Assembly (NCBI GenBank): GCA_031362565.1
Contig: JANLSU010000130.1
Coordinates: 1-60,963, forward strand
Length of the DNA stretch: 60,963 nt
From: a bacterium
Lineage (GTDB): Bacteria; Krumholzibacteriota; Krumholzibacteriia; G020349025
Direction of reading: 5' to 3'
Under the pieces are notes generated by a model, which was not told the DNA's origin, searched no databases, and saw nothing but the letters and a program-made list of their open reading frames with translations. This document shows, in pieces, positions 39,132-58,099 of the stretch; position 1 is the first letter of the stretch; the number at the start of each line of letters is the position of its first letter. The position numbers and the translations under genes are program-made.

Positions 39132-39668
39132 CTATTTGTGGTCGGGAATGAAGACGAGCGCCACCGAATTCATGCAGTACCGCAAATGAGTCGGCGCCGG
39201 GCCATCGTCGAAGACATGCCCGAGGTGTCCGTCGCAGCGAGCGCAGGTCACTTCATCGCGCTCCATCCCCAGCATCTTGTCCTTGCCGATCTTGACGTGC
39301 TGGGGATTCAACGGTTCCCAGAAGCTCGGCCAGCCGGTTCCGGAGTCGAACTTGGTCTTGGAGCTGTAGAGATCGTAGCCGCATGCCGAGCAGCGATAGG
39401 TTCCGGCCGCATGTTCATCCCAGTACTTGCCCGTGAAGGCCCGCTCGGTGCCTTTTTCGCGCATGACGTTGTACTGCTCGCCGGTCAGCAATTGCTGCCA
39501 TTCGGCGTTCGTCTTGACGATGCGATCGGGGGTGTTGGGATCGGCCGTGACGGCCGCGGGCGTAGCCATGGGCGCTGTCTTCGCGGCGGGCTTGTTGGCG
39601 GCGATTCCGGCCACCGCCGCCAGAACGAGCGCCGCGCAGACGAGGCCAACGCGGGACTTGGATTTCAT
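39132..39668 (-). CDS. msrB: Methionine-R-sulfoxide reductase with signal peptide
   Basis: GTERAF, KFDSGTGWPSF, HLGHVFDDGP, RYCMNS, two CxxC; hydrophobic leader. Confidence 0.93.
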   Translation of the reverse strand: MKSKSRVGLVCAALVLAAVAGIAANKPAAKTAPMATPAAVTADPNTPDRIVKTNAEWQQLLTGEQYNVMREKGTERAFTGKYWDEHAAGTYRCSACGYDLYSSKTKFDSGTGWPSFWEPLNPQHVKIGKDKMLGMERDEVTCARCDGHLGHVFDDGPAPTHLRYCMNSVALVFIPDHK

Positions 39669-39788
39669 GATCCGGACACTCCTGTTCGTCGAGTCAGCGG
39701 TCGAGGCGCCGGTGCGTCGCCGCAAGTTGGGGGGTGAGGCCCATCCTCTGATGCCCAAGCCCCTCTACAGGGAAGAACCGGCGCTCGG

Positions 39789-40293: not shown

Positions 40294-41634
40294 ATGGCAC
40301 TCGTCATCACGACGCTCGGCGTACTCGCGACTTTGGCGCCTCTCGCTGCCTTCTCGGTTCGCCGCGAACGGCAGAAGCAACGTCGCGCTCGCATCGCCCT
40401 CGCACGCGCCCAAGATACGGGTGCCCACGAACCGATGTCGCTGCACCCAGTCATCGATCCTTCGGCGTGCCTCGGCTGCGGCGGCTGCGTCACCGCGTGT
40501 CCCGAAGGCGACATTCTCATGCTCATCGAGGGACGCGCCCGGCTGGTGCACGGTTCACACTGTGTCGGACACGGGGCGTGCAAAGAGGCCTGCCCGAATG
40601 ACGCCATCGAACTCGTGTTCGGCACGGCGACACGGGGGGTGCAGATCCCCGAAGTCGCGCCCGACTATCAGTCGAACGTGCCGGGTGTCTACATCGTCGG
40701 CGAGTTGGGCGGCATGGGGCTCATTCGCAACGCCATCGGCCAGGGCCTGCAGGCCGTCACCCACATTGCTGCCGCACTGCCGCAGAAGCGTGACACCAGC
40801 TTGTTGGACGTTTGCATCGTCGGCGCCGGTCCGGCCGGGATGGCGGCAGCACTCGCCTGTCGCGAGCGCGGGCTGACGCACGTTCTCTTCGACCAGGAGG
40901 GATTGGGCGGCAGCGTCAACCACTATCCGCGTCGCAAGCTCGTTATGACGGCACCGGTCGAACTGCCAATCGTCGGCACGATGCATTTCCGCGCGATCGA
41001 CAAGGAGGGCCTCATCACCTATTGGACCGAGGTCGCACGGCAAGCGCAGATCGAAGTGTGCGCCCCGGAGCGCGTCGAGACCGTGCGGCGTGACGATGCG
41101 GGCTTCATGATCACGACTGACCGGCGCACGATCAGAGCGCGGCGCGTCGTGCTGGCCATCGGCAGGCGCGGCACGCCGCGCAAGCTTGGCGTGCCGGGCG
41201 AGGACTCGTCCAAAGTCGCGTACCGCTTGCTCGAGCCAGAGCGCTGGGCCGGCCAGCACGTGCTCGTCGTCGGGGGTGGCAACAGTGCCGTCGAAGCCGC
41301 GGCGGCGCTTGCGGAAGGCGGCGCTGCGGTGACGCTCAGTTATCGTGGCGCAGCCTTCAATCGCGTTGCCGAAGCCAACCAAACACGTTTGGCGGCCGCG
41401 CGCCGCCATCAACTCGAGATTGCCTTCGAAACCCAAGTGCTCCGCATCGCGGCGGAACACGTGTGGCTCACGACCCCGCAGGGTGAGCGGGTCTTGCAGA
41501 ACGATCAAGTTTTCGTGTTCGCGGGTGGCCAGTTGCCGGATGCCTTCCTGCAGCACATCGGGGTGCGCATGCAGTGGCACCACGGCGAGCGCGCGCCGCG
41601 GCCGGCGGCACCGCCGCGGAGGGCAACCGTATGA
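40294..41634 (+). CDS. Membrane-anchored 4Fe-4S ferredoxin / NAD(P)-FAD oxidoreductase fusion (thioredoxin-reductase-like)
   Basis: N-terminal TM; CLGCGGCVTACP, CVGHGACKEACP; GAGPAG; GGGNSAVE. Confidence 0.88.
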   Translation: MALVITTLGVLATLAPLAAFSVRRERQKQRRARIALARAQDTGAHEPMSLHPVIDPSACLGCGGCVTACPEGDILMLIEGRARLVHGSHCVGHGACKEACPNDAIELVFGTATRGVQIPEVAPDYQSNVPGVYIVGELGGMGLIRNAIGQGLQAVTHIAAALPQKRDTSLLDVCIVGAGPAGMAAALACRERGLTHVLFDQEGLGGSVNHYPRRKLVMTAPVELPIVGTMHFRAIDKEGLITYWTEVARQAQIEVCAPERVETVRRDDAGFMITTDRRTIRARRVVLAIGRRGTPRKLGVPGEDSSKVAYRLLEPERWAGQHVLVVGGGNSAVEAAAALAEGGAAVTLSYRGAAFNRVAEANQTRLAAARRHQLEIAFETQVLRIAAEHVWLTTPQGERVLQNDQVFVFAGGQLPDAFLQHIGVRMQWHHGERAPRPAAPPRRATV

Positions 41635-42611
41635 TCGAACGCCCCAATGTCGCTGCGCCCCATTCACCGGCCGGCACGCCGGCCGGTGCGCGTCCGGCGC
41701 CGTCGGGCGTGCATCCCGCCCCGCGGCCCAACATGCGCCGGTCGCGCCCAGTGCGACGCCAGCGCACGCCGTTTCTCATCGACGCCGTCTTGATTGCGGG
41801 TTGGTTCGCTCTGGCGCTGCTCGGCAGTAGCTACTACCGATTGGCTCCGGAAGCGCGCTTGCATCATGCGTGGCACGCGCTGCTCAAGCCGTCCGGCGTG
41901 GTCGGGCTCGCGTATGGGTACTTGGGCACGGCGTTCATTCTGCTCTTGCTCGGGTATTCGTTGCGGAAGCGGTGGCGGCGGCTCCGGCAACTCGGTGCGC
42001 TGCGCCGCTGGCTCGATGTCCACATCACGTTCGGCCTTCTGGGCCCGGGCTTCATCACGTTGCATGCGGGGTTTCGCATTCACGGCGCCATCGCGATTGG
42101 GTACTGGGCGATGATCGGCGTCATGGCGAGCGGCTTCGTCGGATACTACTTGTACCGGCAATTGCCGAAACTCATTGCCGGCCAAACCGATCAATCGGAA
42201 CTCCTGCGGGTTGAAACCGACGCGCTCGATCAAGAACTACGCGAGCATTTCGGGCTCGACGCCAAGGAGATCGAAGCGCTGCGGCGCGCCGCCGGCGTCG
42301 AACGCGCGGCGCAGCTTGGCGCCCTCGGGAGCCTGGGTTTCTTGATTGGCCAGGATCTGCGCTTTGCGCTCGGGATGTGGCGTTATGGCGGGCTCGGCCG
42401 GCGCCGCTATCCGCGCGCCGAGGCGGCGCGCCTGCGCGGGCTCGTACGGAGCCGCATTCTCGTCGAGCGGCGGCGAGCCTTCCTGCGCCAGTCCGAAGCC
42501 CTCTTCGGGTATTGGCACACGATCCACAAACCGTTCGCGATCGTGTTGTACGTGATGATGACGGTGCACATCGCGATCGCAGTGTGGCTCGGATACGCGT
42601 GGGTGTGGTAA
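41631..42611 (+). CDS. Integral membrane protein, ferric-reductase/cytochrome-b-like
   Basis: About 5 TM with His motifs WLDVH, TLH, WHTIHKP, VHI. Confidence 0.7.
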   Translation: MIERPNVAAPHSPAGTPAGARPAPSGVHPAPRPNMRRSRPVRRQRTPFLIDAVLIAGWFALALLGSSYYRLAPEARLHHAWHALLKPSGVVGLAYGYLGTAFILLLLGYSLRKRWRRLRQLGALRRWLDVHITFGLLGPGFITLHAGFRIHGAIAIGYWAMIGVMASGFVGYYLYRQLPKLIAGQTDQSELLRVETDALDQELREHFGLDAKEIEALRRAAGVERAAQLGALGSLGFLIGQDLRFALGMWRYGGLGRRRYPRAEAARLRGLVRSRILVERRRAFLRQSEALFGYWHTIHKPFAIVLYVMMTVHIAIAVWLGYAWVW

Positions 42612-42616
42612 CGGCC

Positions 42617-44368
42617 ATGGGTGGTGCGATGCGGGCGGGCGGTGTTTGGATGGGAATGGCGGCGGGACTAGCGACTCTTCTGCACCCGGCGACCGGGCGC
42701 GCACAGTTCTCGCCTGGACACCTGGCACACGCGCACGCGTCCATCGACGGGCCGACGCAATGTTTCCAATGCCACGAGCCGCGCAAGTCGACGACCGCCG
42801 GCCGTTGCCTCAACTGCCATCGGGAGGTCGGCGCGCGCCTCGCGGCCGGTTCCGGCTTTCATGGGCATCTGCCCGCGGACAAGCGCCGACAATGTGGCAC
42901 TTGTCATGCCGACCACGGTGGAACCAAGACAGTGCTCATCGTCTGGCCGGGTGGACGTCGCGAGGCGTTCGACCACGGTCTTACGGGCTTTGCGCTCACC
43001 GGGAAGCACATCTCGACGCAGTGCGATGCGTGCCACAAGCCGGATTTGATTCGCGCCGCGGACGTCGAAGAAGCGAAGAACCTGCAACTGGCGACCACCC
43101 ACCTCGGACTCTCGACCCGCTGTGTCGAGTGCCACAAGGATCCGCACGCCGGCCAGTTCGCGTCGCGCGTGACGCGCGACGACTGCGCCGCATGCCACGT
43201 CACCGCAGCGTGGAAAAGGGTGACGTTCGACCACGCCACCGCGCGGTTTCCGCTCGCCGGCAGCCACGCGCGCGTGGCCTGCGCCAAGTGCCACTACTCC
43301 GAGGCTGCAGCCGGGGCGCGGGTCGCCGCCGCGACACCCGGGGCGATGGTCCGTTACCGGCCGTTGGGCAAGGCCGCTTGTGCGGAGTGTCACCCCGACC
43401 CGCACGCCAATCGCTTCGGCAACGACTGCGCCCAGTGTCACTCGGCGGAGAGCTGGCATCGAGTGGTCGCCGGACGCTTCGATCACGAACGGACCCGCTA
43501 TCCACTCACCGGGCGCCACGCCACGGTCGCCTGTGAACGCTGCCATTGGCTCGACAACGCCGCCGGCGCGCGGGTGGTTGAGAATACGGCCGGCGCCAAA
43601 CGCCACTATCGGCCGATCGCCTTCGAGGCCTGTACGACCTGCCATGCGGATCCGCACCAGAAGCGCTATGGAATGGACTGCGCGCGTTGCCACGCCACGG
43701 TTGGCTGGAAAGACATCACGGCCGGCGGCATCGATCACGACAAGACACGCTTTCCGCTCCGCGGCCGCCACATCCCGGTCGCCTGTGAAAAGTGCCACAA
43801 GGGGCGCGACTTCAAGCAAGCATTGGCCTTCGACCGCTGTACGGTCTGTCACGCCGATGCGCACCGCGGCGAACTCGCGACCCGGGCCGACCGCGGTGCA
43901 TGCGAATCCTGCCACACAGTCGATGGCTTCACGCCGGCGCACTTCGATGCCGAAGCACACGCGAAAACTCAGTTCCCGCTCGCCGACGCGCACCGGGCGG
44001 TGGCGTGCGTCACGTGTCACGCTCCGAAGGACGCACTGGGGGCGAAAGCGGTGTTTCACTTCAAGTTTGCAGATGAGCACTGCGCGGCGTGCCACGCCGA
44101 TCCGCACGCTGGACAATTCGCCGCCAAAACCGGTGGCGCGACCGATTGCGCCCGCTGCCACACCGCATCCATGTGGCGCTTGTCCTATTTCGATCATGCG
44201 GCGACCCGGTTCCCGCTCGACGGCGCGCACTCGCGCGCTGCCTGCGCGGCGTGTCACCGTTCCCAATTGCTCGCGGGCCAGTCCGTAGTGCGGTACCGGC
44301 CCCTCGACACCGCTTGCCGCTCGTGTCACTCGGATCCGCCGCGCGCGAAGCGCGTCAAAGGGACGTGA
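42617..44368 (+). CDS. Multiheme cytochrome c, 20 CxxCH motifs
   Basis: Signal peptide then QFSPG; 20 CxxCH counted; repeating FDH..T.FPL.G.H unit. Confidence 0.93.
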   Translation: MGGAMRAGGVWMGMAAGLATLLHPATGRAQFSPGHLAHAHASIDGPTQCFQCHEPRKSTTAGRCLNCHREVGARLAAGSGFHGHLPADKRRQCGTCHADHGGTKTVLIVWPGGRREAFDHGLTGFALTGKHISTQCDACHKPDLIRAADVEEAKNLQLATTHLGLSTRCVECHKDPHAGQFASRVTRDDCAACHVTAAWKRVTFDHATARFPLAGSHARVACAKCHYSEAAAGARVAAATPGAMVRYRPLGKAACAECHPDPHANRFGNDCAQCHSAESWHRVVAGRFDHERTRYPLTGRHATVACERCHWLDNAAGARVVENTAGAKRHYRPIAFEACTTCHADPHQKRYGMDCARCHATVGWKDITAGGIDHDKTRFPLRGRHIPVACEKCHKGRDFKQALAFDRCTVCHADAHRGELATRADRGACESCHTVDGFTPAHFDAEAHAKTQFPLADAHRAVACVTCHAPKDALGAKAVFHFKFADEHCAACHADPHAGQFAAKTGGATDCARCHTASMWRLSYFDHAATRFPLDGAHSRAACAACHRSQLLAGQSVVRYRPLDTACRSCHSDPPRAKRVKGT

Positions 44369-44372
44369 GATC

Positions 44373-45761
44373 ATGCTGAATCGAGCCATCCAGCGCCGCG
44401 CCAAGCGATGCCCCACCGCCGTGTGCGTGCTGCTTGCGGCGCTGATCGTAGCCCGATCCGCGGCCGCCGCCGCGCCCGTCTGGGGTGCGCGCCCCGCGCC
44501 CGCACCGGGGCTCGGGCCCGTGGTGGTGTTGGCCATGAATGAGGCGCCGGCGCCAGTGTCGGCGCCGGCGCCAGGCAAGGCCCTGGCGGTCGAGAACCCG
44601 CACGGCAACATCAAAGCGGCCTGCGAAGAGTGTCACACCGCCGAGAGCTGGACCAAGATGCGCCGGCCGACGCGCTTCCAACACGCGTCAACGGGCTTTC
44701 CGCTCGACGGGCGCCACGCATCGGCGGAATGCCGCGCTTGTCACGGCTCGCTCGGGTTTTCCCGCGTCGCGACCAGTTGCGTCGACTGTCACCGTGATGT
44801 CCACGAGGGTCGCAAAGGCCTCCGGTGCCAGGAATGTCACACCGCGAGCCGGTGGGTGGATCGCTCGGACGCGGTGCGGCGGCACGCCAGCACCGGCTTC
44901 CCGCTGCGCGGCGCGCACGCCCTCGTGGAATGCGCCCGCTGCCACGGCGGCTCGGACGAAGGACACTTGACGCGCGCGTCCACGGCCTGCGCGTCGTGCC
45001 ACGCGAGCGACTATGCCGCGGCGCGCAACCCCGACCACAAGGCGCTCGGTTACTCGACCCAATGCCAAGACTGTCACGACGCGGCGCGCACCACGTGGAC
45101 CGGCTCCGGCTTCAATCATGCCGCGACCGGGTTTGCGCTGACGGGTGCTCACGGCTTGGTTGGGTGCGCGTCGTGCCACCCTAACAACCGGTTTGCCGGC
45201 ACGCCGACCGATTGTTACGCGTGCCACCGGACGAATTTCGAGGCCACCACCAATCCGAATCATGTTGCCGGCGGGTTCGCGACGGCGTGTGTCACGTGTC
45301 ACTCGACGAATGCCTGGCGTCCGGCGGCGTTCAATCATGCGGCGACGGGCTTTGCGCTTACGGGGGGACATGCTTCGGTTGCGTGCGCCTCCTGCCACCC
45401 GAACGGCCGGTTCACGGGCACGCCGACCGATTGCTACGCATGCCACCGCACGAACTACGAGGCGGCGCTGAATCCACCGCACGCCGCCAGCGGCTTTGGC
45501 ACGACCTGTACCACGTGCCATACAACCACCGCATGGCAGCCTTCGACCTGGGACCACGACGCGCAGTTCTTCCGCATCTATTCGGGCACCCATCGCGGCC
45601 GCTGGACGAGTTGTGCGACCTGCCATACGAGCCCGAGCAATTTCGCCGTGTTTACGTGCTTGCAGTGTCATTCGCAGTCGGCGACGGATCCTCATCACAG
45701 CAACGTGTCGGGGTATCGCTATGACAGCAACGCCTGTTACTCCTGTCACCGCCGGTCGTGA
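44373..45761 (+). CDS. Multiheme cytochrome c, 16 CxxCH motifs
   Basis: Signal peptide, Pro/Ala linker, 16 CxxCH counted. Confidence 0.93.
   Translation: MLNRAIQRRAKRCPTAVCVLLAALIVARSAAAAAPVWGARPAPAPGLGPVVVLAMNEAPAPVSAPAPGKALAVENPHGNIKAACEECHTAESWTKMRRPTRFQHASTGFPLDGRHASAECRACHGSLGFSRVATSCVDCHRDVHEGRKGLRCQECHTASRWVDRSDAVRRHASTGFPLRGAHALVECARCHGGSDEGHLTRASTACASCHASDYAAARNPDHKALGYSTQCQDCHDAARTTWTGSGFNHAATGFALTGAHGLVGCASCHPNNRFAGTPTDCYACHRTNFEATTNPNHVAGGFATACVTCHSTNAWRPAAFNHAATGFALTGGHASVACASCHPNGRFTGTPTDCYACHRTNYEAALNPPHAASGFGTTCTTCHTTTAWQPSTWDHDAQFFRIYSGTHRGRWTSCATCHTSPSNFAVFTCLQCHSQSATDPHHSNVSGYRYDSNACYSCHRRS
45111..45548 (+). repeat. Intragenic tandem duplication, two copies of 219 bp (73 aa, three hemes each)
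   Basis: TTCAATCATG starts at 45111 and 45330; FNHAATGFALTG..CASCHPN.RF.GTPTDCYACHRTN is repeated. Confidence 0.85.
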
Positions 45762-45765
45762 CGCG

Positions 45766-47376
45766 GTGGGTCACGGATTCGTGCGGGGTGCTTGGCGCTG
45801 GATCGCGCTGGTTGCGGCTCTCGCCGCCGCCGGCGCGCGCCCGGCAGAGGCTGCGACGGCACGCATCCAATATGTTTCGAGCGGCAGCGTCTACCTCGAT
45901 GCGGGCCGCGCTGCAGGCCTCGCCGAAGGCGCGCATCTGCGCGTCGAGCGCCAAGGCCAGGTCGTAGGCGAACTCGTCGTGGAGTTTGTCGCGGAGAACT
46001 CGGCGGCCTGCAAGGTGCTTTCGGCGACCGCTGCGCTTGCGGGCGGCGATTTATGTGTGTTCGAAGCGCCGGCCGCGCGCGCTCCCGGCACCACTTCTCC
46101 GACCGGGCCGCAACCGCCACCGGGTCCGTCGACAGCGCGCGATCGAAACTCAAAACGCGCCTCCGGCGGCAGCGCTGTGCGCGGCAGCCTGGCCTTCGTC
46201 TACCGAGAGTACTCAGCCGACGACGCCACCTCCAGGACACCGGCCGTGCGTGCCAACGTGCGCTGGGAAGGCGACGAGCGGCAAAGACTCGAAGTGCGCG
46301 TCTACGCCACCCACCAAGCGCTCGATCTGGGTGCGGCGACTTCGAACGGTGTGTCGCGTCTCTATGACGCGGCGTTGCGCTATCGCGCGGCGCGCGACCG
46401 GTTCGGGATCGACGGTGGGCGCTTCGTCCCGGAGCGCTTGGAATGGATGGGTTCGATCGATGGTGCCGCGGCCGCGGTGCGGCCGCTTGCCGGACTACGC
46501 TTGGGATTTGCCGGTGGGCGTGCGGCGCGCCTCGAGTGGGGGGAACCGTCGAACCTCGGGCAGCGCTGGGGTGGATTCCTCGAAGCCAATGACGCGCGTC
46601 CACAGGGCCCGGTCCGGTGGCGTGTCGTGGCCGGTGGCGTGCGTTTGCAAGATGCGTCGGTGATCCAGCGGCAGTTCGGTTTCCTGCGCACCGACGCGCG
46701 GCTAGGAGCGCGCGTTCGTGCGTATGACTTGTTCGAAGTCGACGTCAATCCGGCGTGGAAACGGCGGCTCGGAGAACCGCACGTGACACTGACATCCTGG
46801 GGCGCGGGGACCGACGTGTCGTTGCCGCACAATCTGGAAGCGACGGTCGGGGTGGATTCGCGCCGCGACGAGGTGTTGCCCCAAATCGGCAGCGTCCCGA
46901 TCGTGCCGGCGCCGGTTTCCGAACGCACCAACGGCATCAATGCGGGTCTCGCGCTGCGTCCGTCGCTGTGGAGTTCATTCCGGGTGCGAGGTGACGTTCG
47001 CACCCGCAGCGATGGCAGCCGCGCCACACGTTCATGGGACGCGAGCGTCGCGGCGACGCCACCGCAGCTCCGGCAAGTGACGGGCATCCTTCACGTGAGC
47101 CTGCACGATTCACCGTTCGAGCGCGGCGAGATCACCGATGCGAGCCTCTCCTACGCCGTAACATCGATGTGGCGCTGCGACGTGGCGGCCGGCTCGTACC
47201 GGTCGCGCGGCGGCTCGACCGGAGTCGTGCCGGGAACCGGGGATCCACGCCGCAATTGGCTCCGGCTCGGCGCCGACCTGCAACTCGGCGGCGGCACGTG
47301 GCTGTCGGGAAGTGGGGAGTGGCGCTCGCAAGCCGGTGGGCGTGACGTGTTCGTGGAAGCGGGGCGCCGTTTCTAA
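45766..47376 (+). CDS. Putative outer-membrane beta-barrel (porin) with N-terminal soluble domain
   Basis: Signal peptide ending AEA, Pro-rich linker, amphipathic strands, terminal Phe (VFVEAGRRF). Confidence 0.7.
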   Translation: MGHGFVRGAWRWIALVAALAAAGARPAEAATARIQYVSSGSVYLDAGRAAGLAEGAHLRVERQGQVVGELVVEFVAENSAACKVLSATAALAGGDLCVFEAPAARAPGTTSPTGPQPPPGPSTARDRNSKRASGGSAVRGSLAFVYREYSADDATSRTPAVRANVRWEGDERQRLEVRVYATHQALDLGAATSNGVSRLYDAALRYRAARDRFGIDGGRFVPERLEWMGSIDGAAAAVRPLAGLRLGFAGGRAARLEWGEPSNLGQRWGGFLEANDARPQGPVRWRVVAGGVRLQDASVIQRQFGFLRTDARLGARVRAYDLFEVDVNPAWKRRLGEPHVTLTSWGAGTDVSLPHNLEATVGVDSRRDEVLPQIGSVPIVPAPVSERTNGINAGLALRPSLWSSFRVRGDVRTRSDGSRATRSWDASVAATPPQLRQVTGILHVSLHDSPFERGEITDASLSYAVTSMWRCDVAAGSYRSRGGSTGVVPGTGDPRRNWLRLGADLQLGGGTWLSGSGEWRSQAGGRDVFVEAGRRF

Positions 47377-49905: not shown

Positions 49906-50823
49906 TCAGGTCTTGCCGGCGGGGTATGCGTTCCGCGTCGTCGCCGCGACGCGCCGCAGCGCCGGCGCGAGTGGCGAACGCTTCCGCCACACGAGCGCAA
50001 TCGTGCGGAACGGCGCCGGCTTGGCAAACGCCCGCACCCGTAGGTTGGCGCGCTGGGTTTCGATCGGGACCGCGAGTTGCGGCAGAAGAGTCACCCCGGC
50101 GCCACCGGCCACCATCTGCGCCAGGGTCGAAAGGCTGGTGGCGCGAAACGCCAGCTCGTGAGCTTTGGCATCGGCACAAAACGCCAGGGCCTGGTCGCGA
50201 AAACAATGCCCATCATCCAAGAGCAAGACGTCCAGATCCGCGAGTTCGGCCGGACGCGCCGGCGTCTTCCGTTTGCACACCCGGTTGCCGAGCGGCGCCG
50301 CGAGGACGAACATGTCACGCGCGACGACCTCGCGCTCGACGTCGCCGACGTTGGCTTCGAGGGCCAAGAGTGCCGCTTCGGATTCACCGGCCTCGAGGCT
50401 CCGCAGCAGCACATCGGTCTTGTCTTCGACCCAAACGATCGTCAGATGCGGGTGCGCGGCGCGCAGCGCCGGTGTGAGGGCCGGCAACAGATAGGGCGAA
50501 ATCGTCGGGATGACCCCGATCCGAAGCGTGCTCGCCAACGGATCCTCGGCGCGCTTGGCGGCATCGGCGAGGCCGTCGGTGTCGCGCAGGATCCGGCGGG
50601 CGCGTTCAATCAGCTCACGTCCCGCGGCTGTTGGGAGGACGCGCCGTTGATTACGCTCGAACAGACGGACGCCGAGTGCGGTCTCGAGCGCCGCAATCTG
50701 GGCGCTGAGCGATGGCTGCGAGACCCCGCAGCGCTCGGCCGCCTTGCGGAAGCTCAACAGGTCGGCGACCGCGACGGCGTACTGCATCTGGCGCAGCGAG
50801 AAAGGATGCGAGGAATGCTCCAT
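49906..50823 (-). CDS. oxyR: Hydrogen-peroxide-sensing LysR regulator
   Basis: LysR HTH; GHCFRDQALAFC with both redox cysteines; divergent from catalase. Confidence 0.9.
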   Translation of the reverse strand: MEHSSHPFSLRQMQYAVAVADLLSFRKAAERCGVSQPSLSAQIAALETALGVRLFERNQRRVLPTAAGRELIERARRILRDTDGLADAAKRAEDPLASTLRIGVIPTISPYLLPALTPALRAAHPHLTIVWVEDKTDVLLRSLEAGESEAALLALEANVGDVEREVVARDMFVLAAPLGNRVCKRKTPARPAELADLDVLLLDDGHCFRDQALAFCADAKAHELAFRATSLSTLAQMVAGGAGVTLLPQLAVPIETQRANLRVRAFAKPAPFRTIALVWRKRSPLAPALRRVAATTRNAYPAGKT

Positions 50824-50858
50824 AGCCGGAGCCTATCACTTCCATCGGCACATTGTCT
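50822..50858. promoter_or_regulatory. OxyR binding site ATAG-N7-CTAT-N7-ATCG-N7-GTCT
   Basis: First two tetramers match the OxyR consensus exactly; overlaps the oxyR start codon. Confidence 0.65.
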
Positions 50859-50941
50859 TGGACCCCATGGCGGCGCGCGCCGCATTCTTCGCGGCGTACG
50901 CTCGTGGCGAAGTCCAGCTTTGAACGACCAAGGAGACGCAC

Positions 50942-52423
50942 ATGTCGAAGCGACCCAAACTAACCACTGAGGCTGGGAAGCCCGTCCTCGACAACCAGCA
51001 CTCGGAAACCGCCGGGCCCGCGGGGCCGGCGCTGCTGCAGGACCACCATCTGATCGAGAAGCTGGCAAGATTCAATCGCGAGCGGATTCCGGAGCGCATC
51101 GTGCACGCTGTCGGCAGCGGCGCGTACGGGTATCTCGAAGTGACGAACGCCCAAGTGTCGCAATGGACGAAGATGAAGGTGTTCTCGCCGGCCGGCAAGC
51201 GGACGCCGCTCTTCATTCGCTTCTCGACGGTCGCGGGCGGGCGAGGCGCCGCCGACACGGCGCGTGATCCGCGCGGCTTCGCGGTGAAGTTCTACACCGA
51301 GGACGGCAACTGGGACCTCGTCGGCAACAATACGCCGGTGTTCTTCTTGCGCGACGGCATCAAGTTCCCCGACTTCATCCACTCGCAGAAGCTCGATCCG
51401 TATACGAACCGCCAGGAACCCGACAACGTCTGGGATTTCTTTTCGCACTCACCGGAAGCAACCCACCAATTCGTGTGGTTGTTCGGTGATCGCGGCCTTC
51501 CGGCGTCGCTGCGGCAGATGGATGGCTTCGGCTCGCACACTTTCCAGTGGGTGAATGCCAAGGGCGAGCGCTTCTGGGTGAAGTTCCATTTCAAAACCGA
51601 TCAAGGCATCCACTGCCTGACGTCCGACGAGGCGGCGGCGCGCGCCGGCAAGGACCCATCGGCCACCCACAAGGATCTCTACGACGCCATCGAACGCGGC
51701 GAATATCCGTCGTGGACGCTCAAAGTGCAGGTCATGCCCGAGGCGGCGGCCGCCACGTACCGTTTCAACCCCTTCGATCTCACCAAGGTGTGGCCGTACG
51801 CCGACTACCCGCTGATTCCGGTTGGCAAGATGGTGCTCGACCGCTTGCCCGAGAACTACTTTGCGGAAGTCGAGCAAGCGGCATTCGATCCGGCCAACAT
51901 GGTGCCGGGCATCGGCCCGTCACCGGATCGCATGTTGCAGGCACGGCTCTTCGCCTACGGCGACGCGCATCGCTACCGGCTCGGCATCAATCACACCCGG
52001 CTGCCGGTGAATGCGCCCAAGGAGGTTGCAGGTGGCGCCAGCAACTACGGCCGTGATGGCGCGATGCGTTTCGACGCCAACGGCGGCCGCACCAAGAATT
52101 ACGAACCCAATTCCTTCGACGGCCCAATGCAAACCGGTGAGCGGCACGAGACCGGCTTCAACGTCAGCGGCGCGACCGGACCGGCCGTGCCGTTCAGCCA
52201 TGTCGAGGACAACGACTTCGTGCAGGCAGGCGCGCTCTACCGGGTGATGAAGGCCGACGAGCGCGAGCGGCTCGTTGCGAACATCGCCGGCAGTATGGCG
52301 CAAGTGGGGCGCGACGATGTCGTTGAACGATCGATCGGCCACTTCCGGGCAGCGGACGCGGAGTTCGGCAAGAAGCTCGCGGACACGGTCGCGGTCCTGC
52401 GTCGTGCAAGGAGTTCGAAATGA
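50942..52423 (+). CDS. katA: Monofunctional heme catalase (small subunit)
   Basis: [40 protein letters not shown]. Confidence 0.96.
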
Positions 52424-52974
52424 GCCCCCTGGGTTCGAGTCTGGCGCCGGACGGAGCCGGCGCGCCGGATGAAGAGGCGCTGGCCATCGCTCGCGCCGCC
52501 TTTCAGCACGCCCGGGCCGGCGACGCGGCCGCGCTACGCGGCCTTCTCGACCTCGGGCTGCCGGTGGACGCGCGCAACGAGAAGGGCGATAGCCTTCTCA
52601 TGCTCGCGAGTTACAACGGCCATCTCGATGCGGCGCGTTTGCTCCTCGAACGTGGCGCCGACGCTGGATTGCGCAATGATCGCGGCCAGACAGTCCTCGC
52701 GGGCGCGGCGTTCAAGGGGGACACCGCCGTCGTGCGGCTCCTGCTCGAGCATGGTGCACCGGCGGACGGCGCGGCACCGGATGGCAAAACGCCGCTTTTC
52801 TTCGCCGCGATGTTCGATCGCATCGAAGTCATCGAGATCCTGCTCGCACACGGGGCTGTCGCTGATCGCCCGGACGCCGCCGGCGCGAGCGCTCTCGACC
52901 TGGCGCGCGGCATGGGTGCCGAGCGGGCCGCGGCCCGGCTCGCAACGGCACTGGCGGTGCGCGGCCCCGGCTAG
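52420..52974 (+). CDS. Ankyrin repeat protein (AnkB-like, catalase-associated)
   Basis: [38 protein letters not shown] overlap with catalase. Confidence 0.88.
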
Positions 52975-56070: not shown

Positions 56071-56892
56071 TCACGGGGTCGAGAGCCGCACCGGCTTGCT
56101 GAATCCGGGATCGTCGAGTTCGAACTCCACCGGCACCCGGATCCAGTAACCTTCCGCAAGTTGGTATTGCTTGGGAAGCTGCAGACGCCATTGTTGAAGC
56201 GCTTCGATCGCGGTCAGCTCGAAACTGCGGGTCGATGCGATCGCGGGGTCGGCGGTTGCCTCTTGAACCCGGGCCTCGCCGACTTCGCCCTCCGCCGTGA
56301 TTCGCAACGCGACGATGACTCGCCCCGAAATGCGGTGCTGCAACTCGTACTCCGGATACGTCGGCTTGACGAGTTTCAGAATGACGAACTGTTCCGAAAA
56401 CGGCACATCGGGTTGCAATCCCGGTTCTTGGATGGGCGGATCCGCCTCTTGGTTGTCGGTCGACACGCCGCCTTCACCGTGCGTGCCGGCCGCGCCATCC
56501 ACGCGTGACATGGGACGCGCGCCGTCGGGGCTCGGTGTGGATCGCGTCTTTGTGGCGTGGGCGCGATCGAGCTGCTGTGCCGGCGCACCGCGCGATTGCG
56601 CCGGCTGCTCGGCTTGCACCCGGTGCCGGGTGCTCTGTACACCGTTCTGCGGCGCTCTGAACAAGTAAGAGCGCATTGCATTCGCCTGTAGTTCGTCGAT
56701 GTGGTCGGAGTAGTGCGTTGGCCCCAGATACCCGAGGAAGAGCGGCGGCTCGGGAATCGTCCGTGGCATGGAATGGAACAGGTTGAGGCGCGGCGAGAAA
56801 AAGACCAGGAACCCGATGAGCAGGTGGGTGGCGCCGGACGCAATGAACCAACGTCTCGACGTCGACGGCAACTCCTCCTCGGGCCGGCTCAT
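56071..56892 (-). CDS. TonB-family energy transducer
   Basis: N-terminal TM with His; C-terminal KPTYPE..GRVIV..ALQQWR..VPVEF. Confidence 0.75.
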   Translation of the reverse strand: MSRPEEELPSTSRRWFIASGATHLLIGFLVFFSPRLNLFHSMPRTIPEPPLFLGYLGPTHYSDHIDELQANAMRSYLFRAPQNGVQSTRHRVQAEQPAQSRGAPAQQLDRAHATKTRSTPSPDGARPMSRVDGAAGTHGEGGVSTDNQEADPPIQEPGLQPDVPFSEQFVILKLVKPTYPEYELQHRISGRVIVALRITAEGEVGEARVQEATADPAIASTRSFELTAIEALQQWRLQLPKQYQLAEGYWIRVPVEFELDDPGFSKPVRLSTP

Positions 56893-57132
56893 GGTCCGCG
56901 TCGACACTGCAACCTTCCATTCGGGGGCATCTTGCGATTCTCCCGACTTGGGGCCCGGCGATGCCCAGAGTGTATCAAGAATGCGCGGCAGGTGTTGCAG
57001 GGCGCGCCGCCCGCTCAGCATTCGACGGGGCGCCGCGCTCGGCCGGGTCTCCGGGGGCAGAGGTTCCAGGCATTGGATATGCACAAAAACACCAGCTTGA
57101 CGGTCCGGTACGTAATCGCTACAGTGATCTTG

Positions 57133-57149
57133 TTGAGACTGAGTCTCAA
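57133..57149. promoter_or_regulatory. Perfect 8-1-8 palindrome TTGAGACT-G-AGTCTCAA, Fur-family box
   Basis: Between divergent TonB and FTR1 genes; resembles the 7-1-7 TGAGAAT-N-ATTCTCA Fur box. Confidence 0.7.
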
Positions 57150-57244
57150 TCGCAAGGGGTCTGCCGACGGAACCACGGCGCTGTCGCTCGAGGATCGATC
57201 GACGCGCAACGGGTCGGCGCCATGGCAACCGAGGGAGTTCGCGG

Positions 57245-58099
57245 ATGCTGCAGGCATTCATCATCATTCTGCGCGAAGGCTTCGAGGCATTTCTGCTCGT
57301 GGCGATCGTGTTGGCCTACTTGCGACGGACCGGGCGCACATGGTCGATCCCGGCGGTGTACTGGGGCCTGGTCGCTTCGGTGGTGGCCAGCGTCGGGCTC
57401 GGCTACCTGCTGAAGAACGGTGTCGACGAAGCGCTGCTGCAGAAAGTCATCGGGGCACGTCTTGCCGCATCGGCAACCCGCTTCTTCAACATCGAGTCGT
57501 GGCGTGAGGCAGTCCTTGGCGTGGTGACGATTCTCTTCGTCGGCACGTTGGTGATCCATATGTGGAGAACCGGCCCGAGCGCCAAACGCGACATGGAGCA
57601 GCGCCTTGACGTCGCCGCATCGCGGTCGTCGCGTTTCCTGGCGCTGGGTGGCATTTTCCTGTTCACCGTCTTGATGATCACCCGCGAAGGCATGGAGACG
57701 GCGCTCCTGCTGTTGCAAGTTCACGACCGGCAATGGGTGTATGGCGCGCTGTTCGGGGTTGGAGCTGCCGCACTCATGGCGTGGGCGTGGTCGAAGTTCG
57801 GCCAACTCGTCAATCTGAAGCGTTTCTTCCAGGTTACCGCCATCTTCCTCATGCTCTTCATGGTGCAGGTTGCGATCTACACGTTCCACGAGTTCACCGA
57901 GGCGGGTGTGTTCCCGAACAGCGAAGCCCTGCACGTCGCGACCGAGCCGTTCTCGCCGGTGGGCCTTTACGGCAAATGGTTCTCGCCGCTGATGATCGCG
58001 GTCTGTGCTTGCTGGCTCGTGGGGGCGCATTTCGTGGATCGATCCAAGACCAAGTCCAAGCGCGGCCCTCTGCAACCGCTCGGCCACGGCTCGCACTGA
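57245..58099 (+). CDS. FTR1/EfeU-family iron permease
   Basis: Two REGxE motifs (LREGFEA, TREGMET); multi-TM. Confidence 0.92.
   Translation: MLQAFIIILREGFEAFLLVAIVLAYLRRTGRTWSIPAVYWGLVASVVASVGLGYLLKNGVDEALLQKVIGARLAASATRFFNIESWREAVLGVVTILFVGTLVIHMWRTGPSAKRDMEQRLDVAASRSSRFLALGGIFLFTVLMITREGMETALLLLQVHDRQWVYGALFGVGAAALMAWAWSKFGQLVNLKRFFQVTAIFLMLFMVQVAIYTFHEFTEAGVFPNSEALHVATEPFSPVGLYGKWFSPLMIAVCACWLVGAHFVDRSKTKSKRGPLQPLGHGSH

Follow-up and report, generated by a model that had tools for sequence, protein, structure and literature searches.

The window analysed here is the whole of contig JANLSU010000130.1 (60,963 nt; assembly GCA_031362565.1) from a bacterium of the Krumholzibacteriota. It contains a cluster of five genes, g1 to g5, encoding a membrane-anchored iron-sulfur flavoprotein, an inner-membrane protein, two multiheme cytochromes and a predicted outer-membrane barrel. 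Judged by sequence, g2 to g5 match a porin-cytochrome cluster of the PCC3 type, a conduit type that has already been described; the element not reported in the papers searched is the g1 flavoprotein joined to this cluster. In the reading that we cautiously favour, the five proteins would form a single PCC3-type wire leading from NADPH through FAD, iron-sulfur clusters, heme b and the cytochromes to an acceptor outside the cell. The original prediction, made from the DNA letters alone, had described five co-oriented genes with gaps of 5 nt or less, beginning with a membrane-anchored ferredoxin/FAD-NAD(P) reductase and including 20- and 16-heme cytochromes, and this description held. All five genes lie on the + strand with junctions of -4, +5, +4 and +4 nt; the starts of g3 and g5 were set by us at the nearest start codon past the preceding stop, and this choice determines the junction lengths. 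Just 19 frames with three or more CxxCH motifs were found across the 5.4-Mb, 100% complete genome, so that the 36 motifs counted in two neighbouring open reading frames (20 in g3 and 16 in g4) are far above chance. No sigma-70-type promoter was seen upstream of the cluster.

The distribution of the genes was examined in related genomes. The g2 gene was present in 18 of 41 relatives and, across the phylum, in 75 of 181 genomes. A g1-type gene was detected in 71 of the 75 g2-positive genomes and in none of the 106 g2-negative genomes, counts that come from kin genomes and from profiles partly built from those genomes. The barrel gene was present in 73 of the 181, and g1, g2 and the barrel occurred together in 70. 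For the g1 count, 84 genomes gave matches, of which 13 were dropped, their matches being to the permuted flavin domain alone inside longer frames, while 4 split or contig-cut g1 genes adjoining g2 or g5 were retained. Of the 17 loci fetched, 12 had all five genes together, with three gene orders represented (g1-2-3-4-5, g2-3-4-5-1 and g2-1-3-4-5); among the other five loci, two were cut by contig ends, two had no g1 and one had a frameshifted g1 and showed no g4 or g5. A plasmid of Emticicia oligotrophica DSM 17448 carries a comparable unit, in which ccsA precedes genes for the membrane protein, the flavoprotein, cytochromes with 23 and 40 hemes and the barrel, with identities to the present proteins of 44% (g1), 31% (g2), 35% (g3) and 42% (g4).

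A fusion of the first two components was detected in a 790-aa protein from Planctomycetota (P0226), with the g1 domains at residues 24 to 469 and the membrane protein, both His motifs intact, at 487 to 764. The flavoprotein is attached to the N terminus of the membrane protein, which by charge is predicted to be inside. Four other candidate fusions (P0203, P0194, P0220 and P0201) were rejected as probable frameshift read-throughs, in which the last His helix was garbled or out-of-frame text joined the parts. A metagenome scan with P0226 as the query gave no relative. Metagenome loci were also collected with the flavoprotein, and the set consisted of the best 80 of at least 534 confirmed loci. 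A membrane protein was detected in 46 of these, a multiheme gene in 42 and a barrel match in 12; membrane protein was present in 25 of the 35 loci flanked on each side by 1.5 kb or more and in 21 of the 27 loci of at least 9 kb, 7 of which contained all parts. Many of the set had 21- or 24-heme cytochromes and barrels with TPR/SPOR domains, which is the canonical PCC3 layout. Taken together, the co-occurrence, the three gene orders and the one true fusion are strong genomic evidence that g1 belongs to the conduit, as had been predicted. Among recurrent neighbours of the flavoprotein gene (metagenome loci L087-L166), 29 of the 103 loci had a Sel1/ankyrin protein cluster and 21 had CcmI/CycH; the ankyrin matches in this count are to a separate, longer Sel1/ankyrin protein and not to the ankyrin gene of the window.

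Analysis of g1 indicated a single N-terminal transmembrane helix (approximately residues 2 to 20) followed by 8 Lys/Arg residues, two Pfam ferredoxin (4Fe-4S) motifs and Pyr_redox (pyridine-nucleotide oxidoreductase) domains. As basic residues trail the helix, the soluble domain is predicted to be cytoplasmic; a hydrophobic helix ahead of the ferredoxin was present in 47 of 50 orthologues and a Tat motif in none. The first cluster motif is C59-x2-C62-x2-C65-x3-C69 and the second is C90-x2-H93-x2-C96-x3-C100. The near invariance of CxxHxxCxxxCP as the second motif (50/50 orthologues and 79/80 metagenome relatives) suggests that the second [4Fe-4S] cluster has 3Cys/1His ligation. The best NCBIfam match was TIGR04018 (YpdA) at 173.6 bits, about half the cut-off of 339.9, and the best PDB match was 7a7b (Bdr/YpdA; E 1.7e-48), followed by ferredoxin-NADP reductases of the TrxR type. 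Alignment of the g1 profile with 2zbw placed profile positions 168 to 435 on chain residues 3 to 271 and positions 120 to 139 on residues 270 to 289; by this alignment the FAD/NAD(P)H domain is circularly permuted, with the C-terminal FAD motif moved to the front. The permuted order was present in 50/50 orthologues, and a CxxC within the flavin/NADPH domain in 0/50. Assignment of g1 as a thioredoxin reductase was therefore rejected for want of the redox-active CxxC, and assignment as a true YpdA/Bdr was rejected on the TIGR04018 score and the permuted order. Y350 and R351 (of the S-Y-R motif), R357 and GGGxSA are invariant among the orthologues (n = 50), a pattern that we take to be that of NADPH-binding members, and on this basis g1 is likely to be NADPH specific.

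Variants of g1 were also observed. Orthologues in four loci with the g2-g1 order (L026, L027, L029 and L030) carry an extra CxxC...CxxC zinc-ribbon-like insert N-terminal to the ferredoxin. A paralogue of the permuted flavin domain is embedded in longer proteins that have an Fe-S region at the C terminus (G000:C90:48679-49716 of the host genome and L045:4115-6412), and this longer form is present in 13 g1-less genomes, among others.

The original prediction had called g2 a His-rich protein of the heme-b type. Histidine accounts for just 12 of its 326 residues, and the significant part is four histidines that are invariant in 149/149 homologues, arranged as W-x3-H-x13-H twice with SGxxG between. 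In g2 the motifs are W127-x3-H131-x13-H145, S167-G-x-x-G171 and W295-x3-H299-x13-H313. Five transmembrane helices (TM) are predicted; hydropathy gave four peaks over threshold, and TM3 was placed via the alignment. The WX3HX13H pairs fall on TM3 and TM5 and SGXXG on TM4, such that all motifs of the PCC3 membrane protein are present. The numbers of Lys/Arg residues in the N terminus, loop 2-3 and loop 4-5 (a basic loop of 119 residues) were 9, 8 and 22, versus 3, 1 and 0 in the alternate segments, and this charge bias predicts that the former segments are inside. Overall, the two motifs support the prediction of a di-heme b protein with a ferric-reductase/NOX-like layout. No Pfam family matched g2 at E<=0.001, and no solved structure matched in a g2 profile search. 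Among the 149 homologues, weak matches were found to PF01794 in 38 (E<=0.1; best homologue 2.8e-5; g2 itself not matching) and to PF01292, the quinone-reactive cytochrome b family, in 30, so that Pfam does not discriminate between a NOX-like and a quinone-reactive type. At E<=1e-30 the family comprises 1232 representatives, and its atlas clusters are most frequent in Gemmatimonadota, Acidobacteriota and Myxococcota; close relatives are in Krumholzibacteriia and Eisenbacteria, and distant relatives in Bradyrhizobium BTAi1 and Roseomonas adjoin FNR-type flavoproteins instead.

Both cytochromes have predicted signal peptides, with 29.1 aa per heme in g3 and 28.9 in g4; g4 lacks a lipobox and is 41% Thr, Ser, Ala and Gly. 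Heme numbers were compared in 38 clusters with two intact cytochrome frames, drawn from 40 loci with a membrane protein and a barrel. The first cytochrome had 20 hemes in 30 clusters, 17 in 7 and 23 in 1, and the second had from 12 to 49 hemes. The nearly fixed heme number suggests that g3 is likely to span the periplasm, and the freely varying number that g4 is likely to be the outward cytochrome. Compared with canonical-layout PCC3 loci, g3 shared 32% identity with their cytochromes of 21 and 24 hemes (E 3e-70 and 2e-64); g4 was closer to periplasmic-type repeats (36%) than to canonical outer cytochromes (25 to 26%); no solved structure matched g4.

The g5 protein is predicted to have a signal peptide, a small N-terminal beta domain (31 to 99), a flexible linker and a barrel (137 to 535), with a C-terminal Phe. 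An AlphaFold2 model from an alignment of 52 sequences had a pLDDT of 84.6 and a pTM of 0.73, and 22 barrel strands were counted from its DSSP list. Every match listed by Foldseek was an outer-membrane barrel. In the VIA comparison the best match was 5t3r_D (Z 16.3, rmsd 3.6, 374 aligned), and MtrB (6r2q_B) ranked 40 (Z 12.7, rmsd 6.3, 345 aligned). No NCBIfam or Pfam family was found for g5, and the model predicts an outer-membrane beta-barrel. Second barrels of the g5 type were observed next to 13- to 19-heme cytochromes in three loci (L080, L081 and L082), in the genomes of which the g2 profile gave no second membrane protein.

As described in the available parts of He et al. 2017 (PMC5566968), PCC3 is a cluster of an inner-membrane protein, a periplasmic multiheme, an extracellular multiheme and a porin. 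The membrane protein has approximately 300 aa and five TM, with WX3HX13H on TM3/TM5 and SGXXG on TM4; the cytochromes are very large, with 22 to 39 aa per heme and approximately 21 hemes in the periplasmic one; and the porin of L. cholodnii is listed in the supplement with 22 strands. The present g2-g3-g4-g5 agree in adjacency and order, in the membrane-protein motifs, in aa per heme, in the repeat-built cytochromes and in the 22-strand predicted barrel. Two metagenome loci, L127 and L129, whose assignment to the canonical layout is our inference, served as stand-ins for the type proteins. The membrane proteins matched at E 3e-18 and 9e-15, the second cytochromes were 25 to 26% identical and the barrels matched by profile alone (E 1e-8 and 3e-6), which points weakly to homology of g5 to canonical-layout PCC3 barrels. 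The present cluster differs in its fifth, translationally coupled flavoprotein gene, unmentioned in the portions of the published PCC3 descriptions that were available, in a shorter barrel without TPR/SPOR domains and in a non-proteobacterial host; the published model, furthermore, draws on quinone. The distinctness from Mtr/Pcc that had been claimed for this conduit was thus partly sustained, in that it differs from those systems but is not an unnamed kind.

Sideroxydans lithotrophicus ES-1 has two PCC3 loci, Slit_0867-0870 and Slit_1446-1449, both of which were down on Fe(II) (PMC8788666, in part). A supplement of PMC12016527 lists Slit_0866, adjoining the first locus, as a 430-aa FAD pyridine-nucleotide oxidoreductase that goes unnamed in the main text as far as this was available. 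Four of its five peptides matched g1 at 6/8, 10/14, 8/11 and 5/7 positions and the fifth placed poorly; Slit_0866 is likely to be a g1 orthologue. The same supplement lists Slit_0525 (431 aa, one non-unique peptide), which might be a flavoprotein paralogue serving Slit_1446-1449. In the openly readable literature no paper was found that ties a flavoprotein to PCC3, though Figures 6 and 7, Supplementary Table 4 and the PCC4 domain figure of He et al. might do so. PCC3 is given as four genes of untested function by Hoover et al. (PMC9900912) and in 10.1101/2025.02.27.639646 (each in part), and the accessible parts of PMC7399161, PMC8258643, PMC7914226, PMC9769843, 10.64898/2026.05.27.727921, PMC6295460 and PMC12133095 describe no such coupling. 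In the available text, He et al. mention redox proteins that they do not name, lying next to membrane proteins of related type.

Comparison with other systems placed these features in context. PCC4 and the porin-less clusters of a multiheme, an HX13H membrane protein and a redox protein (He et al. 2017, in part) share a five-TM protein with two HX13H motifs beside a cytochrome and a redox protein, but their cytochromes are small (4, 5, 10 or 7 to 18 hemes) and the second group mostly lacks a porin. MsrQ, which belongs to this membrane superfamily, offers a precedent: it receives electrons from a cytosolic NADH oxidoreductase, and its bound ubiquinone is proposed as acceptor and not donor (PMC12525009, in part). 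MsrQ and the NOX/FRE proteins share with the present cluster a heme-b membrane module, a cytoplasmic pyridine-nucleotide flavoprotein donor and outward electrons, whereas here the donor role falls to a TrxR-fold Fe-S flavoprotein rather than FNR/Fre and the acceptor would be a giant cytochrome wire and barrel. The g2 protein has the two HX13H pairs on TM3/TM5 of the ferric reductase domain PF01794 but falls below the profile threshold. The FAD and NADPH domain without CxxC is shared by g1 with YpdA/Bdr and TrxR-type ferredoxin-NADP reductases (7a7b, 7a76, 2zbw and 3ab1), from which it differs in being permuted, in its membrane anchor and in a fused 2x[4Fe-4S] ferredoxin in which one ligand position is an invariant His. 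MtrCAB (6r2q) and Geobacter Pcc likewise combine a barrel with two multiheme cytochromes, but no CymA-type gene is present in the cluster and the barrel has 22 predicted strands. The MtrB barrel has 26 strands. Assignment as MtrAB/MtoAB was rejected, as scores against the MtrA/DmsE model TIGR03508 were 40.6 and 29.9 bits (cut-off, 192.2) and g5 has no porin family; the MtrC models also scored far below cut-off.

These results suggested a mechanism of which we infer the cofactors, localisation, contacts, direction and substrate. NADPH would reduce the FAD of g1, and electrons would move one at a time via the two [4Fe-4S] clusters of g1, probably leaving from the cluster with the His ligand. The g1 protein, kept by its anchor on the cytoplasmic side of g2, would then reduce the inner and then the outer heme b in the manner of a two-component NOX or ferric reductase. 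The 20-heme g3 would likely span the periplasm, and the 16-heme g4, likely held by or secreted through g5, would meet Fe(III), humic quinones or another cell. Outward electron movement with release of a proton inside would consume proton-motive force. The NADP+/NADPH couple lies at approximately -320 mV and the membrane is inside-negative, and hence export would be downhill, while uptake from Fe(II) would be uphill and opposed by the field. The respiration or electron uptake that had been suggested for the conduit is thus not supported as worded; as export would dissipate proton-motive force, the unit is most likely a redox valve or extracellular reductase and not an energy-conserving respiratory chain.

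Several observations weigh against this wire, in addition to the relatedness of the genomes behind the phylum counts. No g1 gene is present in four of the 75 g2-positive genomes, of which G024 and G034 have a divergent arrangement, and P0226 is the sole true fusion. In the metagenome set 46 of 80 loci showed the membrane protein, which was on the opposite strand to the flavoprotein in 31 of the 46 and was not seen in several long loci (L095, L125 and L160). The PF01292 matches of g2 homologues are nearly as frequent as those to PF01794, and the g5 barrel has 22 strands and an N-terminal domain that might sit in its lumen. In ES-1 no flavoprotein adjoins the better expressed cluster, Slit_1446-1449, whose neighbours are an HD protein (Slit_1445) and an aldolase (Slit_1450), and Slit_0866 and PCC3 proteins were more abundant at the late magnetite time point than on Fe-citrate, an imperfect fit to pure export (PMC12016527, in part).

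The published PCC3 model would make g2 a quinone-reactive cytochrome b connected to the quinone pool and g1 an accessory that feeds quinone or ferredoxin or aids heme maturation. He et al., in the available text, likened the PCC3/PCC4 membrane protein to a ferric-reductase domain and proposed it to be quinone active, and this view is consistent with the PF01292 matches, the ubiquinone bound by MsrQ, the ES-1 cluster without an adjacent flavoprotein, the CcmI/CycH-type genes in up to 21/103 loci and the Emticicia ccsA. We consider it unlikely in view of the joined g1 and membrane protein of P0226, the confinement of g1 to g2-positive genomes in the phylum and the ferric-reductase-type His spacing and TM3/TM5 layout; the absence of CxxC leaves a maturation helper no thiol route. 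An inward wire, in which Fe(II) minerals, Fe(0), cathodes or partner cells would donate electrons via g1 to NAD(P)+ or ferredoxin, was judged improbable. With Fe(II) as donor, the reduction of NADP+ would have to climb several hundred millivolts against the opposing membrane potential, such that just very low-potential donors would work. The fall of PCC3 transcripts on Fe(II) (PMC8788666) also argues against it, set against the presence of PCC3 in iron oxidisers (PMC5566968), the log2 increases of +2.35 and +2.55 for Slit_0866 on late magnetite versus Fe-citrate (4 unique peptides; PMC12016527), all taken from partly available sources, and the TrxR-type ferredoxin-NADP reductases among g1 relatives.

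A dedicated assimilatory ferric reductase working with FTR1 and TonB iron uptake had also been suggested. Both genes are real, g2 resembles ferric reductases and TonB-dependent transporters likewise have 22 strands, but homologues of FTR1, TonB, catalase, the OxyR-like protein and MsrB were found beside the cluster in 0/103 related loci (many of them short), and a 36-heme wire would be expensive in iron under iron starvation; this explanation appears very improbable. The least probable, in our estimate, is that no conduit crosses the outer membrane, the cytochromes serving as a periplasmic electron store or feeding periplasmic reductases and g5 being a transporter or secretion pore. Such an arrangement would agree with the missing lipobox and periplasmic-type repeats of g4, the transporters as best structural matches of g5 and the failure of proteomics to detect the ES-1 outer cytochrome Slit_1448 (PMC12016527, in part); it is opposed by the pairing of g5-type barrels with multiheme cytochromes elsewhere and by the variation of g4 against a nearly fixed g3, as expected if g4 reaches an unconfined space.

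The coordinates of the cluster and of other features are given in the table below. The FTR1 and TonB genes are approximately 9 to 10 kb from the cluster. In the host genome, two CcsA-type genes and no CcmE match were found when maturation genes were sought, which makes system II cytochrome c maturation likely. Three heme-copper oxidase subunits, two NrfD-type proteins, a NapC/NirT-type tetraheme and the PntB transhydrogenase are also encoded, which suggests an NADPH source and separate respiratory chains. Two further multiheme regions were observed in this genome. At G000:C129:13413-27905 (L043 5414-19000 and beyond) is a second cluster of PCC4-like flavour, with a distant HX13H membrane protein, 10-heme and 3-heme proteins, a 9-heme LVIVD protein, a cNMP/4Fe-4S protein, a Phe-ending frame, an HbpS-like protein and an FHA/2Fe-2S protein with an upstream TrxR-like region. 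At G000:C85:77936-87118 (L044) is a 42-heme cytochrome of 1122 aa near 7- and 6-heme cytochromes.

Table. Genes of the cluster, other features of the window and the Emticicia unit
Feature	Position	Strand	Description	Basis
g1	40294-41634	+	446 aa, TM-anchored 2x[4Fe-4S] flavoprotein	
g2	41631-42611	+	326 aa, PCC3-type inner-membrane protein	
g3	42617-44368	+	583 aa, 20 CxxCH	
g4	44373-45761	+	462 aa, 16 CxxCH	
g5	45766-47376	+	536 aa, C terminus RRF, predicted barrel	
MsrB	39132-39758		Apparent signal peptide	Pfam
LysR (OxyR-like)-catalase-ankyrin genes	49906-52974			Pfam
TonB C-terminal protein	56071-57267		Unrelated genes between it and the cluster	Pfam
FTR1	57245-58099		Unrelated genes between it and the cluster	Pfam
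Emticicia oligotrophica DSM 17448 unit	EMTOL_RS21090-21110			

PCC3 serves genome surveys as a candidate marker of iron oxidation or extracellular respiration, with its entry point guessed as quinone. If the flavoprotein is the entry point, the direction and purpose of PCC3 change, with electrons leaving NADPH at an energy cost. A possible extension, to which we give slightly less than even credence, is that PCC3 across many phyla is a quinone-independent, NADPH-driven export machine with a two-component NOX-like entry, a fixed periplasmic cytochrome and a variable outer wire. Two cultured organisms carry a flavoprotein with PCC3, S. lithotrophicus ES-1 (Slit_0866, as the likely orthologue) and E. 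oligotrophica DSM 17448. If this reading is true, the five genes would offer a compact connection between a cytoplasmic cofactor and an electrode, and PCC3 would be neither an iron oxidase nor an energy-conserving chain but a widespread electron valve, present even alongside aerobic oxidases.

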